A DNA stretch of 64,000 nucleotides from a virus (taxonomy: Duplodnaviria; Caudoviricetes). The notes below the pieces were generated by a model, which ran no database searches, had not been told where the DNA came from, and was given only the letters and a program-made list of their open reading frames with translations. Of this stretch, positions 3,492-58,763 are shown piece by piece. The stretch covers positions 4,162 through 68,161 of IMG/VR virus record IMGVR_UViG_3300037721_000043; one strand, 5' to 3'. A program made the translations under genes and the position numbers. The first letter of the stretch is position 1. Every line of letters begins with the position of its first letter.

Positions 3492-6400
3492 CTAATTTAC
3501 AGGATTTTTAGGCGATTCTATATAGCCAGCTGAAACATAGTGCAGTAGGCTTCTATGGATAACATCTGGAGCTAAAGTAAGCAGCACTTGGATGGCCTTG
3601 CTCCTCATTTTTTGCCCTTCAATTATCGGGTTCACTGTGTTTGGTGTATTCTCATCGTTCTGCATCGGTGCCCAGTACGTATCCTCCTGATCCTCAAACA
3701 TCGTCAGTGGTATGTTCGACTGTTGAATGGTTTTTTGCCCTCTGTACTCACTGATAATCCTTTCCGCCATCCATGGGTCAGTTGCTACTACTGCAAGAGT
3801 CTGCCATGATTTGACCATTATCTGAAGTGGATTGAACACTGGCTCAATCTTAACAGGATATTTCACACCGTAGAATGTGCCATAATCGGGACCGCGCTCA
3901 TGTAGAAATACATTTCCATTAACAAAGCCTATAAACAAATTACCAATCTTAGCGAACCTCTCCGGATTATAACTATGACATCCTTTCCACCGAGTGTCAG
4001 CCTCACTGAATATTGTGCCTTTATAATCTGAATACCCTCTAAAAGATTCCGGCAGCGAGCTGTGGTCAATTCTGGTTACCAGTTCATCGTTGAATGGATC
4101 AAATTCACTAATCACTCGAGGTATCTCATCGGTTATGTACTTGGTCATCAGGAGATCTCCAATTTCCTTAAACCAGTTCCTCATTTTATTATCCGATATT
4201 GCCGTTAACCCATCACGACTGTATCTGATCCAGCTTCCATTAATTGCATCCCAATAATAAACTCGGCCGCGCTTTTTGCTTATACTTTCCGGATTAAGAG
4301 TTCCGAAACTTCCGACCAGCGCATTGAAGCTGCCCAGCACTTTATTGCTCAAAGCAATCTGGGTGTTACCGCTAAGATCCTCTATTGTTGTCCTGTTGAC
4401 ATATATGCTCCACGTCTCTCGTTCTCCAATAGCTAAGAATATAGATCCAACAGATTCGACCTGGGCATTAGTAACGTTTACAAGATCCCGTATCCTTCCG
4501 TATTCTGATGGGTATATGAATTGGTCTTCCTCCCGGAAATTATTGAGGTTGTTAACAAAAGACTCCTCGATAATTTTACCACCAAATCTGACCTGTGTCG
4601 GCTTGAATTTAGCTATTGGATAATTCGAGTATGAAATGCTAGGCCGGCCATTGCCACGGTCCCAGTATCCATATGTCTGACTTCTTAAATTAGTCATGCA
4701 TGGCGAGTTAACTGTTTTCACTTGGCCGCCACCTAACCCCAGATCCCGGTAGTTGGTCTTGCCCATCATTGTACAGTCACCAAGGGAGAAAGGTATCCTG
4801 CTGTACACACGTACAGCCCCATACTCAATACATGTGATGCCGTCGTTATTGGTGTATGTCCAGTCACTTTTTGACCACGTCCTTTGATTTGTTCCCGGGA
4901 ACAATATAGGATACCATTCTCCTGTCTCATAGAATATGTAGTCCGCAGAGTCTGAATCCTTTGGCGTGTACACCTCTATCGTGGCATCCTCTAAAATAAA
5001 ATTAGATCCATTCGATGTAGCGACCCATGCAAGATCATCTGGTTTTTTGCAAATAATAGCCTTCCCGGTAAACTCTAAAATGAGTTCGTCATAAACAGCT
5101 TTTTGCTCCTCCGTCGGATTTACCACTGCGCTACCGACAAATCTTACCCTATCTCCATGTCGGAAATTATAAAAGAGATTATTCATCGGATTATCGACTA
5201 ATCCACTTGCATCTTTTTTACTGGCGTTGTACCAGTTATTAATGTCGAAGTATAGGCGACTTCCATTAGCCATAACGGTAGCCTGAATAGTCTCACGCAT
5301 TTGCATGACCAACTTTGGCGCTATCTTATTCGATAGTAAATACCTATTAAGACTTTTATCCCTATTGGGACTGGTGTCAAAGAAATATTTACCGGCACTA
5401 TCTCTTGTCACCAATCCATTACCTACAAATGGATTTATCCTAGCACTTTGTACTTCATCAACTTTCTGGCTGAATTCATACCCCTCAACTATCCCAGAAT
5501 TCTCAAAATGTTGAGATATTCTGTTTTTCATGTCCTGAGACAAAGTAGTTACGTCATTTAATGCGGCCGCGACATTATCAATGAGCACGGTGGCCTTATT
5601 AAATAAACCGAACATGAAGTAGTCTATGTTCAAACAATTAGTCCTGACAATCTGGTAGGACACTGCCCATTTAGGTGGAATAAAATTTGGGCTTAGTTTG
5701 AACGTCAGGCCATACCCACCTTCCTCTACTTTCTTTTCATTAGGGACAAGGTAAGACCATTCATCGTTGGTATATGTACCGCTGACACGGCCTTTGCTGT
5801 CTGAGAATACTATTCCTACTTTATACCTTCCTCTTGATTTAAATGTATGGTCAGTTATAGAATTTCTTTTAGCTAATTCCTGAGCATCAAGCGCACTCAT
5901 GCCAGTGAATGCAGGTATTACCAAATTCCAGTTATCATTGGTGGTAATCATACTTCTCCTGACGACTCCTATATTCGTCACGATAGGCCTAATCGATGGT
6001 TCGTCCTCATCAAGACAGTCTCCAAATACAAATCTGTTATCAATAGAGTCGACGGTTCCAGCCAGTAACGGTACGGTATCGAAAAGTTGGTAGAAGTCAA
6101 TTTCAGATATCGGGGTTGAATTGGCCTCCCCATAAAAACGTACTACGTTGTCAAACGTACCCCTATTATCAAGAGTTTTGAATAGTCTCCACAGATCTGT
6201 TTCCCCCTCTCGGTACACAATTTCTATGGCCTGTACCGCAGCCACAAATTTAGGGTCAGAGTGATTGAAATAGTTGTACTGACTACCGCTGTCCGGGTTA
6301 TTGTACAATATCCCTGGTATAAATAGTTCTATTGCCGTTATTGATGGAGGGGCGATGTTTGTACCGCTTGATAGTGTCGGCTTGTTGTTAGCCACACTTG

Positions 6401-49697: not shown

Positions 49698-49967
49698 ATG
49701 ATCATCCCTAACTGCCTAACTCCAGGGGAAGCCGAACTCTTCGTAGCCCCCAACGTCCAGGAAGCAATCCACTTGCTCGACCTGATACCAGTCCCATCCA
49801 AATCCTTCAAAACCAATCTGGCCGTTGACTCCCGCATATCCACGTGGCTCGCTGAGGCCCCAAATAGCCCCACTGCAGTGATATCTGCCCCCAGGACCAT
49901 ACTCGACATGTGGGCTACGCCGATCGTCGATCCTGGAGCCTTTAACGCAGCCAAATGCCCGTTCTGA
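49698..49967 (+). CDS. Possible hypothetical protein
   Basis: MIIPNCLTPGEAE...; competing antisense ORFs, uncertain. Confidence 0.3.
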   Translation: MIIPNCLTPGEAELFVAPNVQEAIHLLDLIPVPSKSFKTNLAVDSRISTWLAEAPNSPTAVISAPRTILDMWATPIVDPGAFNAAKCPF

Positions 49968-50341
49968 TGAAGAAGACTCTCGCATATGTGATCGCTTCTG
50001 GGTTATCTACCGTTCTCTGGTGCCTTGCCCTGCATAGTTGTGCTATGGCGCCAGGCGCCCCGAACCCCCCGGGTCTATCCCAAATTGGGACATCGAAACT
50101 TTCGACCCCCACCCCCTCGACTTTCGCAATGCCAAAATGTCAGCATAAATGCTTTGTCCAGAATTGGGACACAGCTGAAACTAATTCCTGGTTTGGCTCA
50201 TCTCAAATCACCGCAACGAAATGGGTAAATACCATAGAATCTACTGAGTTGGAGAAAACACAACTAAAAAATATTTGTTGTATAATTTATCATATGACAA
50301 TAGTCGATTGTATGTTATGTAACATTCCATTATCTTTCGAA

Positions 50342-50992
50342 ATGATTGAAAATAGAAACATTGGGGATTACATTGAGCTCCAGAAAGGGGAGCAATGGCG
50401 GCCTGTAGTACAGTGTCCAGAGCATTATTCAGTAAGCTCTTTCGGCCGAATATTTAGCTGGAAATCCAAGTTCCAATATAACTACAAACCTATCGGGTTA
50501 TTAAAAACAGGGAAACACAGCCTTGGATATTGTGTCGTATCACTTGATTATCAGGCACCTACAAAATTACATCGTGTTGTGGCGCTAGCCTTCATTCCAA
50601 ACCCTGATAACAAGCCTGAAGTTAATCACATCGATCACAATAAGCAAAACAATCGCGTCGATAATCTCGAATGGGTCACACATTCAGAGAATATTCAGGC
50701 ATCATACACTGGTGGATTTAGGGTTTCAAAGCGAGGCGATAAGCATCATAGATACGGTAAAACTATTCCTGAAAGTGCCAGATCTGCGATGTCAGAGGCT
50801 AAAATGGGTGAGAATCATCCCAAATTCAAGGGTTGGTACATTATTGACGAAACCAAATATTCTTCTGCTAACCAGGCAGCGAAGGCATTAGGCATTCATC
50901 CGATTATGGTCAGCCGGAGAGCTGTTGATGATCGTTTCCCAAATTGGGAATTTGTGCCAAAAGAAGACAAAACACCAATTTTAGACGCATGA
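50342..50992 (+). CDS. NUMOD4-HNH-NUMOD3 homing endonuclease
   Basis: EQWRPV...YSVSSFGRI, HRVVA.AFIPNP.NKPEVNHID.NK.NN...NLEWVT.SEN, G..HP/H.RYGK; start re-called at 50342. Confidence 0.9.
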   Translation: MIENRNIGDYIELQKGEQWRPVVQCPEHYSVSSFGRIFSWKSKFQYNYKPIGLLKTGKHSLGYCVVSLDYQAPTKLHRVVALAFIPNPDNKPEVNHIDHNKQNNRVDNLEWVTHSENIQASYTGGFRVSKRGDKHHRYGKTIPESARSAMSEAKMGENHPKFKGWYIIDETKYSSANQAAKALGIHPIMVSRRAVDDRFPNWEFVPKEDKTPILDA

Positions 50993-54383: not shown

Positions 54384-56505
54384 ATGAAAACTACAGACAT
54401 CACCCTGACCCGCATCAACAACGACGTAAACGGTAACCCCCGCTACGTGGCGGGCTTCCTGAACTTCATCACACCGAAAGACAAAGGCGACATATCTGAT
54501 AAATATGACCTGGCGGTAAAGCGTGCTAAGGCCATTGGCGGTAAGAAGTACCATAACAAGACATACGGCGGCGGCATCGTGTTCCAGTCGTATAACACCA
54601 ACGACCTGTTAAAGTCTATTGTCGACATGTACAAAGAAAATTCGAAATAAGCCATGGAAACCTTCACAGTAAACGACCCCACGGGGGTCTATATGTTCGC
54701 CGGCAACGAGGCGGAGGCCTGGGACGCATACACCTCTGACCCACTGTCATATTTAGAGCTCATGACCTGGTTTGATTGGTGTGTGAGGAATTTGGAGCAG
54801 GTGATATTGTACGTTTAAATAAAAATATATGGCTAAAACGATAGAAGATATAAATCCTGATTTGAAGGATGTATTCAAACACTTCCAAGCGCTAGGATGG
54901 AAACAACCAAAAGATGGGTTCCCGGACCGGTTTGTACTTGAGCATCCTACAACTGGGCATTACCTAGAAGTGCTGAATTTCCCATCTGATTACGTAGCCG
55001 TGATTAACAAATCAGGGACAACTATACTCGGTGCAGGTGTGACAGTAGACGAGATAAACAAAAATTACAAATGCGCCTGAACCTATCCATAGCCTCCATC
55101 ATCGCCATAACGATCGCATTAAGCATGTATATATTAATCCATTAACCTATGCCCAGCGGAATACCAGATAAGCGCAAAAAGACACCGCAGCAACTAGCGG
55201 CAGCGGTAGCTGCTGGCGAGGTCACACACACCATTGATGGCACCACATTGATAGGCCTGTATCAAAGCAAGGACGGTCTCTATCGTGGCCAGTGTTACGA
55301 TAAGGATACTGATACTATGAAATGGCGTGTATGGGGCACTGATGGCAGCACGACGGAAGGTATACCAGTTGGGTTGTCATTATGTACAACATCGGCTGCC
55401 CAAAGGAGAGAATGGAACGACAGAACCAAAAATAAAAAACCATGACCATACCAGAGTACGCCGCCAAACTATGGGCGGACAAGATCTCCAAGCTTATGTA
55501 TGATCCAAAAATCAAAAGCCAGGCAGATAAAATAGAAAAGTTCAAAATCTTGCTCCAGCGCTACACTGAGATAGGTATTACAGGTAAGCACAAATGCTAC
55601 GTAATCTTTACGGATTATCATGCCGGGACTGATTTAGAGGGAATTTGTATTGCTGCTGATCTTGAATCTGAGGCTTTGCCTATACAATCCTACATGCAGG
55701 TATACCCCGACAAAATACAATACAAATTCGGCTACGGCCAACCGATTCAAACCATCACTTTAGAAGAAATACAAAAATCATGACCATCGGCACACGCGTA
55801 TACAAACAAGGCTCGCCAAGCGATTACACAGCCGGCAGGCAGGGGGTAATAGTCGACACGGGGCAAGGTGTAAGGCTAGATAAAGCCCTCGTTAAATGGG
55901 ACGAGAACGGCAAAGAAACATGGGTACAAATCGGTGGTTACCGCGGCGTCCATGAGATTACTGAAAATGGAGTTATGTCCCAAAATGGGAATGAGTTCCA
56001 TAAACAGGACGTACTTGCCAGTTCGGTACCAAAGAAATACGGCCGTGTAATAGTTCACCCGCGCGAGATCGACAAGGCTGCTGCGGAGCTGGCCGGATCC
56101 AAAGGCAACAAATCCTAATTTTATGCAAACTAATTCCGGAAAAGACGTGTGGACTATCACTGCTAAAAACCCTCCGCTTTATTCAGGTTTTTACGATGTG
56201 GGAGGTTCTGATTATCGAAGACTGTACTACCATGGCACTTTAAGGAAGTGGTATGCAACAGTCGGAGGTGAAGGTACAATGGAGGTAAAAGCACCAATAA
56301 CATGGAAGTACGGAGATTCCACTACCGCATCATAAACACCCACGGTACCATTGTGGCGACCTCTGAAGGTGTTAGCAAGAAGCCATACAATACTCGGGTG
56401 GAGGCTAAGAAGGCTGGTGAGCGGGCGTTGTTGATATTGGGTATAAGCACGAAGTCTAACAAGGTAACAGTGATCCCGGGAGAAGCACCCGACTTTAACC
56501 ATTGA
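54384..56505 (+). other. Cluster of 8 small hypothetical ORFs
   Basis: 54384-54650, 54654-54818, 54829-55080, 55149-55445, 55442-55783, 55780-56118, 56123-56335, 56302-56505. Confidence 0.55.
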
Positions 56506-56526
56506 AGAACTTAACCGACTTTTATA

Positions 56527-56802
56527 ATGAAAGAACACGTATTAAAAACACACCCTGAATACTTCAAAGCAATTGTAGACGGAACGAAAACATTCGAATG
56601 TAAGAAAAACGACCGCGACTTTAAGGTTGGGGACATTCTTGAACTTAAAGAATACGATCCTAAAAACGATTACTACTCTGGTAAAATTGAGTACGTACGC
56701 GTAACGTACATACCCTTACTATGGAGTTCAACCTGGATATGTAGTGATGGCAATAAAGCCAGTAGATTGGTAACGATAGAGGAACTAAACAAGCTATTGT
56801 AA
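56527..56802 (+). CDS. DUF3850/ASCH-family protein with a frameshifted C-terminus
   Basis: H.LK..PEYF.AI..G.KTFE...NDRDFKVGD.L.LKEY; the family-like end YGVQPGYVVMAIK lies in the +1 frame. Confidence 0.75.
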   Translation: MKEHVLKTHPEYFKAIVDGTKTFECKKNDRDFKVGDILELKEYDPKNDYYSGKIEYVRVTYIPLLWSSTWICSDGNKASRLVTIEELNKLL

Positions 56803-56999
56803 TGAAAAAATATAGGGTGATATACCGAGACCAAAAGCGGTCACCAAGCGACACGCCGCGCAAATGGGAAGTGATTGAAGAAGTAAAAGAAGGCGAAACG
56901 ATCGATTCTAAAATCAATCGTTACCTGTCAATTCAGAACGCTGGCGAAATGAAAAGTGACCGGATAAAGTATGTTAGTCACACTAAAATAAGTGGATAG
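56802..56999 (+). CDS. Hypothetical protein
   Basis: 65 aa, TAATG-coupled. Confidence 0.55.
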   Translation: MKKYRVIYRDQKRSPSDTPRKWEVIEEVKEGETIDSKINRYLSIQNAGEMKSDRIKYVSHTKISG

Positions 57000-57021
57000 A
57001 GGAACTTAATAGATTACTGTA

Positions 57022-57627
57022 ATGAAGAAACTTTTGGTACTTGTTGGATGCGAGGAATCGCAAGAGGTTTGTAAGGCTTTCCGAGCACGTGGGCATGAGG
57101 CGTATAGCTGCGACATTCAGGAGTGCAGCGGAGGACACCCGGAGTGGCACATACAGGGAGATATTTTCGATGCGATCGAGTCAAGAAAATGGGACATGCT
57201 TATAGCCTTCCCGCCATGTCAGAAACTAAGCAAAGCCGGTGCGGCGAACTGGAAAAGACCAGGTTGGAAAGAAAAGCAAATGGACGCTATGAAGTTCGCC
57301 CACGCGCTAATGTATTGTGAAGAAATAGAATGTATAGCGATTGAAAACCCCGTTGGGAAACTGAATACATCGGTTCGGAAACCAGACCAGAGAATACAGC
57401 CTTGGCACTTTGGGAATCCATATACAAAGGAAACATGCCTTTGGTTAAAGAACCTTCCGCCATTGGTCGCAACTGACATCGTTACCCCAATAGCCAACTG
57501 GGTAAAGCCTGGGAACAAACGTAATCGAAGGTTCAACGACGTTAAGGAAGGAGCAGGAGGTGACGTAAAAGTAAGATCAAAGACCTTCCCCGGAATCGCC
57601 CGAGCTATGGCCGAACAATGGGGATAA
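57022..57627 (+). CDS. Short orphan C5 cytosine DNA methyltransferase
   Basis: LVGCEESQ.V..AF...GHEA.SCD, AFPPC catalytic motif, IENPVG, RSKTFPGIA.AMA.QWG. Confidence 0.85.
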   Translation: MKKLLVLVGCEESQEVCKAFRARGHEAYSCDIQECSGGHPEWHIQGDIFDAIESRKWDMLIAFPPCQKLSKAGAANWKRPGWKEKQMDAMKFAHALMYCEEIECIAIENPVGKLNTSVRKPDQRIQPWHFGNPYTKETCLWLKNLPPLVATDIVTPIANWVKPGNKRNRRFNDVKEGAGGDVKVRSKTFPGIARAMAEQWG

Positions 57628-57653: not shown

Positions 57654-58750
57654 ATGACCGAAGAACAAAAGAAAGCCATCGATCAAATAGCGATCGTATT
57701 TAGAGACCTGAATGGTTTCGAAGTAACGGGCGTGACTGACGGATTTTGCATCATTATTGACCTTACAGGTGACCAGAAAGCGCAAATTTCTGAACAGATG
57801 AACAGAGGTCGCGTACATATCCAATCCATACACCCCGTATTATTATGACAACCGAGCAAAAGACCGCCATCGACGCCTGCAAGGATCAGGCAGCCGGTGA
57901 GCACTTAAACAAAGATGGATTTCCATTCCTGACGTACAAAGAAGCACGTCAACAGGTAGCCGGATTTATCAACGACGAGATAGTCGACCGCGCCATGCAG
58001 CTATACGGCGAGCAGTGCCGGAAGGAGGGGCACAAGCAAGGATGTATTGACACGGCGGCTATTTTAAAACCACTAACCGACCAGGCGTAACCCTGGATAT
58101 AAACGTATGGCAATAAGAATGCATCATAATGTACAGAAGGCCAAGAATTGGAACTCTGAACAACCTCAAGAAGAACATTTTTTTAATGAAAAAGGGAAGG
58201 ACCGGGAGACAGGATATGTGTCAAAATTCGGGACTAATAATAGATGGTTCCCGAATATACATCAAGCCAACAATTACGCAAATGGGTATCAGAATGGTAT
58301 CCGACTTGATGAGAATAAAATGACTCTTTGCGGTTGCTGTGGTGTTGCCATGGGGGTAGGAATGCAATGCGATTGTAAGCTTAAAAATGATTCGTATCGA
58401 GAAACACATAAAACCAGTCAGCCATGACCTTCGCAGAAGCAAAAGACCAGGTGGCCAAGAAACGCAATCTCAAAAACTGGGATGTGTTTGTTACCTCGCA
58501 AAACAATAACCCGAGCCAATTCCTAAACATCACCGAAGCGCTCGAAGAAGCAGGAAACATCCTCGAACAGCACGCCGCGAGCGTGAGGGAGGAAACGGAA
58601 CCTGTTCATTATTCATATCCAGTTTGTGAACAGGATGTTGCCGATCAAATACGGGATGTGTTTGATGAAAGGAATGACTTGCCTGAACAAATTGCAAAGC
58701 ACTTATTTAAAGGATTCAAGTTCGAAAAACTAACCGCCCCGGGGTGTTAA
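57654..58750 (+). other. Small ORFs 57654-57848, 57845-58090, 58107-58427, 58424-58750 (the last an MTFAEAKDQVA paralog)
   Basis: Coupled ORFs; junctions duplicated at 61605-62048. Confidence 0.6.
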
Positions 58751-58763
58751 CCGGAGAGAACGG

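Follow-up and report, generated by a model that had tools for sequence, protein, structure and literature searches.

Recurrent sequences at gene boundaries are known from several phage systems. The boundary or linker sequences of mosaic phages, discussed under the modular theory (PMC3029335 with its references 21 and 22), likewise join the final codons of one gene to the start context of the gene behind it; the PeSL cassettes of T4-type phages (PMC2839356, PMC4122927) are small accessory open reading frames (ORFs) flanked by short repeats and shuffled as modules within a hyperplastic region; and, in coliphages, Rad52-like phage recombinases generate mosaics where homologies are short and diverged (PMC3945230, PMC2327257). 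Here, we consider an array of the first kind in a phage of the Caudoviricetes (Duplodnaviria), within a stretch of 64,000 nucleotides (nt), hereafter the window, that spans positions 4,162 to 68,161 of IMG/VR record IMGVR_UViG_3300037721_000043. Three consecutive gene junctions of this window, which separate four genes (A to D), encode the peptide IEELNxLL (x being arginine or lysine), followed by a stop codon that overlaps the next start codon as TAATG. These three motifs are very probably non-functional or passively used remnants of the 3' end of a gene of 196 amino acids (aa), here called X, used as recombination linkers in the shuffling of small gene cassettes.

As in the described boundary linkers, the tail of X is conserved beside unrelated genes, and the points at which homology switches from one partner to another coincide with it (at 56476 to locus L086, at 56995 to L092, and in L101/L106; L numbers denote the loci compared). 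The array differs from those linkers in that the parent is an uncharacterized gene of uncultured sediment phages, and in that a phage without the parent carries three diverged copies in tandem. We regard it as a clear but ordinary instance of the boundary/linker sequences long proposed in phage mosaicism, and not as a new translated peptide or translation mechanism. With the PeSL cassettes the locus shares short repeats flanking small accessory ORFs, a hyperplastic region, and modular shuffling; however, PeSL repeats are non-coding promoter and terminator units, whereas the X-tail relics come from coding sequence, and neither a sigma-70-like promoter nor a stem-loop terminator or other stable hairpin was found at the copies. 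As compared with integron attC sites, the copies show no inverted repeat or stable fold, and no integrase appeared among the scanned proteins, although no search specific to integrases was made. ERF or RecT genes, short diverged homologies, and traces of homology at the borders of exchange are common to this locus and to the Rad52-like systems; that work is experimental and concerns lambdoid coliphages, whereas the pathway proposed here is drawn from comparative sequence only.

The pattern ATHGARGARYTNAAYNNNYTNYTNTAATG, a 29-nt rendering of IEELNxLL plus TAATG, has exactly three matches in the window, and the same number in the full 68,161-bp record (Table 1); 100 shuffled sequences gave none, and none is expected by chance. 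The copies are mutually just 67-75% identical, differing pairwise at 8, 8, and 6 of 24 nt. When read in the IEELN frame, all differing codons are synonymous with the single exception of R/K; in the remaining five frames, most differing codons alter the amino acid. Copies 1 and 3 overlap the stop codon of the upstream ORF out of frame (as ATT/TGA at 56501-56505 and ATA/TAG at 56996-56999, respectively). Copy 2 lies in frame with the ORF of gene B, but only because the DUF3850 gene is frame-broken here; in the ancestral DUF3850 frame, all three copies sit just behind the upstream stop. The number and position of the junctions, their synonymous differences, and the out-of-frame overlaps of copies 1 and 3 are thus as given in a preliminary description of this DNA. 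The Logan assembly of the probable source run reproduces positions 56200-57200 of the window without a mismatch, which, though not independent data, speaks against an assembler artifact; only one sequencing run, probably the source sample, carries the region, in the form of contigs.

A scan of metagenome contigs with the motif returned two loci (L086 and L092) in which it truly ends a long ORF, the other 9 of 11 matches being unrelated. This ORF is gene X, which is intact in related metagenomic phages and ends in ...REKHPTLTIEELNRLL followed by TAATG. A protein search recovered 13 X homologs of 196-198 aa, as well as two proteins with a different N-terminal part; the tail AELREKHPTLT.EEL.RLL is invariant in all 13 and in both N-terminal variants. 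The preliminary description had listed relic gene ends acting as cassette linkers among its options, and had proposed to look in relatives for a full-length parent and for the genes that follow the motif. Such a parent exists, and it directly precedes each of the three downstream genes: X is followed by the DUF3850 gene in L086, by the methyltransferase gene in L092, and in L114 by a homolog of gene C (P0017, 88% identical), behind which lies a relic starting at the same tail position as relic 3 of the window. Across the loci, the genes found behind an X tail include these three, genes of 80, 77, and 112 aa, and others. Gene order in all contexts fetched is ERF, YqaJ, small genes, a primosomal-like gene, X, and variable small genes.

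X matched no family in Pfam, PHROGs, or NCBIfam, and its AlphaFold model (mean pLDDT 59) is too poor for use; it suggests at most that in the tail a long helix is followed, after a break at HPTLT, by a short helix at the end. The gene itself is absent from the 68-kb record, in which tblastn and a whole-record search found tails only (16, 10, and 8 residues), and the replication gene of the window phage is a VapE-like primase-helicase, not the X module. A scan of IMG/VR for the invariant 20-mer of the X tail returned only the three known X-bearing contigs and one unrelated match (L112), and a scan of the same database for the motif gave a single chance match inside a GTP cyclohydrolase gene (L084). 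Megablast of the region against phage records gave no match, the motif is present in none of 80 viral loci carrying methyltransferase relatives (at most 53% identical), and no pattern-level relatives of genes A and C were found in viral contigs.

Each of the three junctions can be related to X in its own right. At the first, relic 1 is identical to the X C-terminus at 16 of 16 residues (tblastn, 56477-56524) and matches the X-tail profile at positions 9-60 (nhmmer, E = 2.7e-14); the DNA from 56476 through the DUF3850 gene is collinear, at 75% identity, with the X end and DUF3850 gene of L086, and the TAA of the relic overlaps the ATG of gene B. The only homolog of gene A (P0020) has 60 aa and ends in ...VIPVE; the window protein ends in ...VIPGEAPDFNH, so that beyond the P0020-like end it carries six more residues, which are an out-of-frame reading of relic 1. 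At the second junction, PF12961 matches gene B (E = 1e-21) over residues 4-63 only, with Pfam and PHROG matches ending at residue 62-63. In alignment, gene B is without 8 nt at ~56713 as compared with intact homologs in L086 and L101, which are encoded in a single frame (87 and 80 aa, respectively), and the family-like C-terminus is found in the +1 frame over 56714-56773. This gap looks like a mutation, an indel with no conserved recoding site, though a +1 slip at CCC-T is conceivable as an alternative cause. The stop of the family-like frame, TAA at 56771-56773, lies 2 nt before copy 2 and forms the first bases of relic 2; in L086, the DUF3850 gene and the relic behind it meet at the embedded TAA in the same way. 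At the third junction, homology to the X end and methyltransferase gene of L092 begins at 56995 and holds at 84% over 688 nt; the TAA of relic 3 overlaps the methyltransferase ATG, and gene D is 91% identical to the gene directly after X in L092. Comparison of the loci shows that the copies originated as X tails, were moved with the gene downstream, and flank cassettes on both sides.

A DNA profile built from the final 60 nt of X located partial tails in the relatives, within a small sample of about 16 loci. Relics of X recur behind cassette genes in at least seven of the relatives (Table 1), and several of them are decayed, which argues against the two other options of the preliminary description, a translated mini-ORF and a tag added by frameshifting. 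Substitutions at the final RLL are present in 3 of the 9 relics that retain those positions, as compared with 0 of 16 intact tails examined. A relic together with its downstream DNA corresponds to an X end with its downstream DNA elsewhere in L106 (as in L100), L103 (as in L108), and L105 (as in L104). L101 and L106 have one cassette gene with the same 5' junction, and differ in the 3' allele of the relic and in the next gene; this pattern is what recombination within the relic would produce.

Variants that distinguish the window copies also occur among genuine X alleles, in which arginine is encoded by CGA or AGA and the leucine pair by CTT-TTA, TTA-CTG, or TTA-CTT. The X alleles of L092, L100, and L102 match copy 3 at all but 1 of 24 nt; copy 1 and the allele of L099 are separated by 2 nt. 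The codon-like pattern is therefore best read as inherited from a working gene, and not as selected in place; on these allele matches, the copies go back to separate X alleles, whose divergence took place in the donors under selection at the protein level. Selection on the peptide, which the preliminary description had read from the synonymous differences, is accordingly upheld as history, for the parent gene in donor phages, and not for the 8-codon units of this genome. A more general caution follows: a synonymous-only pattern between short repeats may be inherited from diverged alleles elsewhere, and hence is no proof that the repeats are translated where they now lie.

The recombination pathway by which the array was assembled may be pictured as follows. 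X is the last conserved gene of an ERF-YqaJ-primosomal-like module for replication and recombination that a small group of uncultured phages shares, and variable small accessory genes begin directly after it. The accessory gene that stands first behind X would retain the last X codons in front of it when recombined behind another cassette, and arrays of the form x-gene-x-gene-x-gene would accumulate as a result. In the first step, illegitimate or microhomology recombination would join the 3' end of a cassette gene to an X tail; X tails would then form short direct repeats on both sides of the cassette, at which relaxed homologous recombination could subsequently add, swap, or delete cassettes. 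The likely agents would be single-strand-annealing recombinases, namely ERF (with YqaJ) in the relatives, which carry both genes, and RecT in the window phage, which encodes a recombinase of that family (Table 1). The array would have entered the window phage from outside, and at the left joint gene A, which belongs to that phage, would have become fused to an X tail. Possibly, the retained 24 nt also preserve the unstructured start region and stop/start overlap of the downstream gene. The locus offers an unusually complete natural case of the assembly of a phage accessory-gene array, with all three parent arrangements recovered from metagenomes and relics at various stages of decay.

Several observations weigh against this account. 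All relics are short, at most ~17 codons, and their 5' ends cluster at embedded out-of-frame stops (TAA/TGA in TTAACG/CTGACA and TAG in ATAGAG), a clustering that random illegitimate joints would not obviously give. No two window copies have more than 11 consecutive bases in common, so that present-day recombination between them would be inefficient; and no X allele ending in ...NKLL was found, so that the lysine of copy 2 may have arisen once the copy was already a relic, or may stem from an allele outside the sample. As for the clustering at stops, it could result from selection for an intact upstream gene, from instability of long direct repeats, or from a targeted break. Two 3'-truncated relics end a few bases from the tail position at which relic 3 begins.

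It is possible, though on balance doubtful, that the 24 nt are kept in place as a cis element of the downstream gene, perhaps in addition to their relic origin; the element would be an unstructured A/T-rich start region with its stop/start overlap, or a promoter. No relic in the window has lost any of the last 24 nt or the exact TAATG overlap, genes here are without obvious Shine-Dalgarno sequences, and the RNA at the copies is, like an accessible start, no more structured than shuffled controls (z = -1.1, -0.8, and +0.6). However, relics with a truncated 3' end, or at a distance from the next start, are tolerated in relatives (L096, L099, and L114), in L115 gene C works in a context that has no X tail, and the promoter and terminator scan gave nothing on the copies.

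Targeted insertion at the X tail, in which general recombination alone would not be the cause and cassettes would enter through nuclease cutting close to the TTAACGATAGAG codons or via circular x-gene intermediates, appears improbable. It would fit the clustering of relic 5' ends and 3' truncation points within ~13 nt of the tail, as well as the ending of three unrelated cassette genes precisely at one embedded stop; in L086 and L092, X has HNH genes nearby, an HNH/NUMOD4 gene is present in the window, and PeSL mini-circles provide a precedent (PMC2839356). Other junctions, however, fall elsewhere in the tail (profile positions 9, 14, and 20), the cassettes have no nuclease linked to them, no circles were observed, and selection for an intact upstream gene can also yield clustering at stops. 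An elaborated version, to which we give as little credence, makes the X tail one half of a dedicated integrase-less cassette system and a second recurrent gene end, KLTAPGR-stop, the other half, with genes excised and re-inserted at a hot spot near the TTAACGATAGAG codons, perhaps aided by an HNH nuclease in the vicinity or by circular intermediates. Bearing on this is the block CTC-CGG-GAG-AAG-CAC-CCG-AC, which is identical in all X alleles, synonymous sites and the two N-terminal variants included, and directly behind which codons vary freely. Its invariance may come from a DNA-level constraint or from frequent conversion; in a two-half cassette system, the synonymous invariance of CGG-GAG-AAG-CAC-CCG would reflect use of the tail as a recombination target in addition to its coding function.

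Translation of each copy as an 8-codon mini-ORF is very unlikely. In that scheme, ATT or ATA would serve as the start upon termination of the upstream gene, ribosomes would be passed on at TAATG, and the peptide would be under selection. The geometry is suited to this, given that ATT/ATA overlaps the upstream stop or lies 2 nt past it and TAA overlaps the next ATG, and the copies differ synonymously except for one R/K; but both geometry and codon pattern are inherited from X, there is no canonical start codon, and elsewhere in this phage genes are coupled directly through ATGA overlaps, with no mini-ORF between them. An intact mini-ORF frame and start context is not conserved across the relatives, whose relics are frameshifted (a 4-nt deletion, a 1-nt insertion), truncated, altered at residues invariant in the parent, fused in frame to the upstream gene, or without an overlapping start. 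Least likely of all is a portable C-terminal tag reached by programmed frameshifting (e.g., +1 at CCC-G of gene A) or in the unshifted DUF3850 product: possible +1 contexts exist (CCC-G at 56488-56491 in gene A and CCC-T at 56713-56716 in the DUF3850 gene), and an 81-aa gene in L101 and the broken DUF3850 gene here share their reading frame with the tail, which also occurs on two unrelated N-terminal domains (P0014 and P0015), but the three junctions would need different shift directions, copy 3 is without a slippery site, the roughly one third of relics in frame equals the chance expectation, the DUF3850 frame change coincides with the 8-nt gap relative to single-frame homologs, and the native gene A homolog simply stops 7 residues sooner, before the relic, so that no programmed site is conserved among the homologs. 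Neither of these two options of the preliminary description is supported.

Three further candidates were rejected: an RNA structure, as the motif folds no better than shuffled controls; a sigma-70 promoter or terminator, no such site lying on the copies in a scan that does not cover the promoters of non-sigma-70 hosts; and stop-codon reassignment with TGA or TAG read through, the products of which, judged from their sequence, would be short and without relatives.

Table 1. Coordinates of the motif copies, genes, relics, and other junction elements, with relics of X in related loci.
Feature	Locus	Position	Strand	Remark	Basis
Single-strand-annealing recombinase gene, RecT family	Window	39632-40516	-		PF03837, E = 5e-18
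VapE-like primase-helicase gene	Window	46548-48848
HNH_3/NUMOD4 homing-endonuclease-like gene	Window	49955-50992		Free-standing
ORF, 70 aa	Window	56123-56335		Overlaps gene A by 34 nt
Gene A, 67 aa	Window	56302-56505	+	No family; last 6 codons and stop from relic 1, out of frame
Relic 1	Window	56476-56527	+	Last 16 X codons and stop TAA	tblastn, nhmmer, collinearity with L086
Invariant X-tail block	Window	56476-56492
Invariant X-tail block	L086	1454-1480		Same tail positions in L092, L096-L108, L114
Motif copy 1	Window	56501-56529	+		Degenerate pattern scan
Gene B, DUF3850/ASCH	Window	56527-56802	+	Frame-broken at ~56713	PF12961, PHROG
Relic 2	Window	56771-56802	+	~10 X-tail codons (..VTIEELNKLL) and stop	nhmmer, profile positions 29-59
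Motif copy 2	Window	56776-56804	+		Degenerate pattern scan
Gene C, 65 aa	Window	56802-56999	+	No family; stop TAG inside relic 3	Homologs P0017, P0018
Relic 3	Window	56996-57022	+	Last 8 X codons and stop TAA	Homology to L092
Motif copy 3	Window	56996-57024	+		Degenerate pattern scan
Gene D, DNA methyltransferase	Window	57022-57627	+	Third cassette	phrog_757, E = 6e-60
KLTAPGR-type end	Window	58729-58751; 62026-62048
KLTAPGR-type end	L086; L098; L100	2100; 5482; 4998
KLTAPGR-type end	L101; L102; L103	5231; 5889; 1865
KLTAPGR-type end	L104; L106; L108	2416; 3479; 4499
GTAACCCTGGAT.TAAACGTATG	Window	58087-58109; 61604-61626
GTAACCCTGGAT.TAAACGTATG	L115	~225-252
GTAACCCTGGAT.TAAACGTATG	L103; L108	Just past X end
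Relic	L086	Behind cassette gene		1-nt insertion; final L to F
Relic	L096/L097	Behind cassette gene		5' part only (3' truncation)
Relic	L099	Behind cassette gene		12-nt stub (3' truncation)
Relic	L101	Directly before DUF3850		In frame with 81-aa gene
Relic	L103	Behind cassette gene		Final L to I
Relic	L105	Behind cassette gene		Undamaged as far as seen; contig ends inside relic
Relic	L106/L107	Behind cassette gene		4-nt deletion
Relic	L114	Behind cassette gene		N to S

In the sole relative of gene A, the upstream gene encodes 116 aa and overlaps by ATGA; the 70-aa ORF that overlaps gene A in the window may be truncated or frame-shifted. The HNH_3/NUMOD4 gene of the window adjoins the VapE-like primase-helicase gene.

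Two other junction elements recur, the first of them a second portable gene end. Many unrelated small genes end in KLTAPGR-stop, with the versions ..KLTAPGC and ..SLTATGR in the window. The DNA that encodes this end is a GC-rich near-palindrome with TAAC/GTTA on its flanks and CCGGA after it; in some loci a stop codon stands directly before it, so that there it would be either a non-coding hairpin or a relic. In L103 and L108, the X end has a decayed copy behind it. The third recurring junction element, GTAACCCTGGAT.TAAACGTATG, precedes different genes, and in L115 it precedes the gene C homolog, which indicates that gene C also exists without an X tail.

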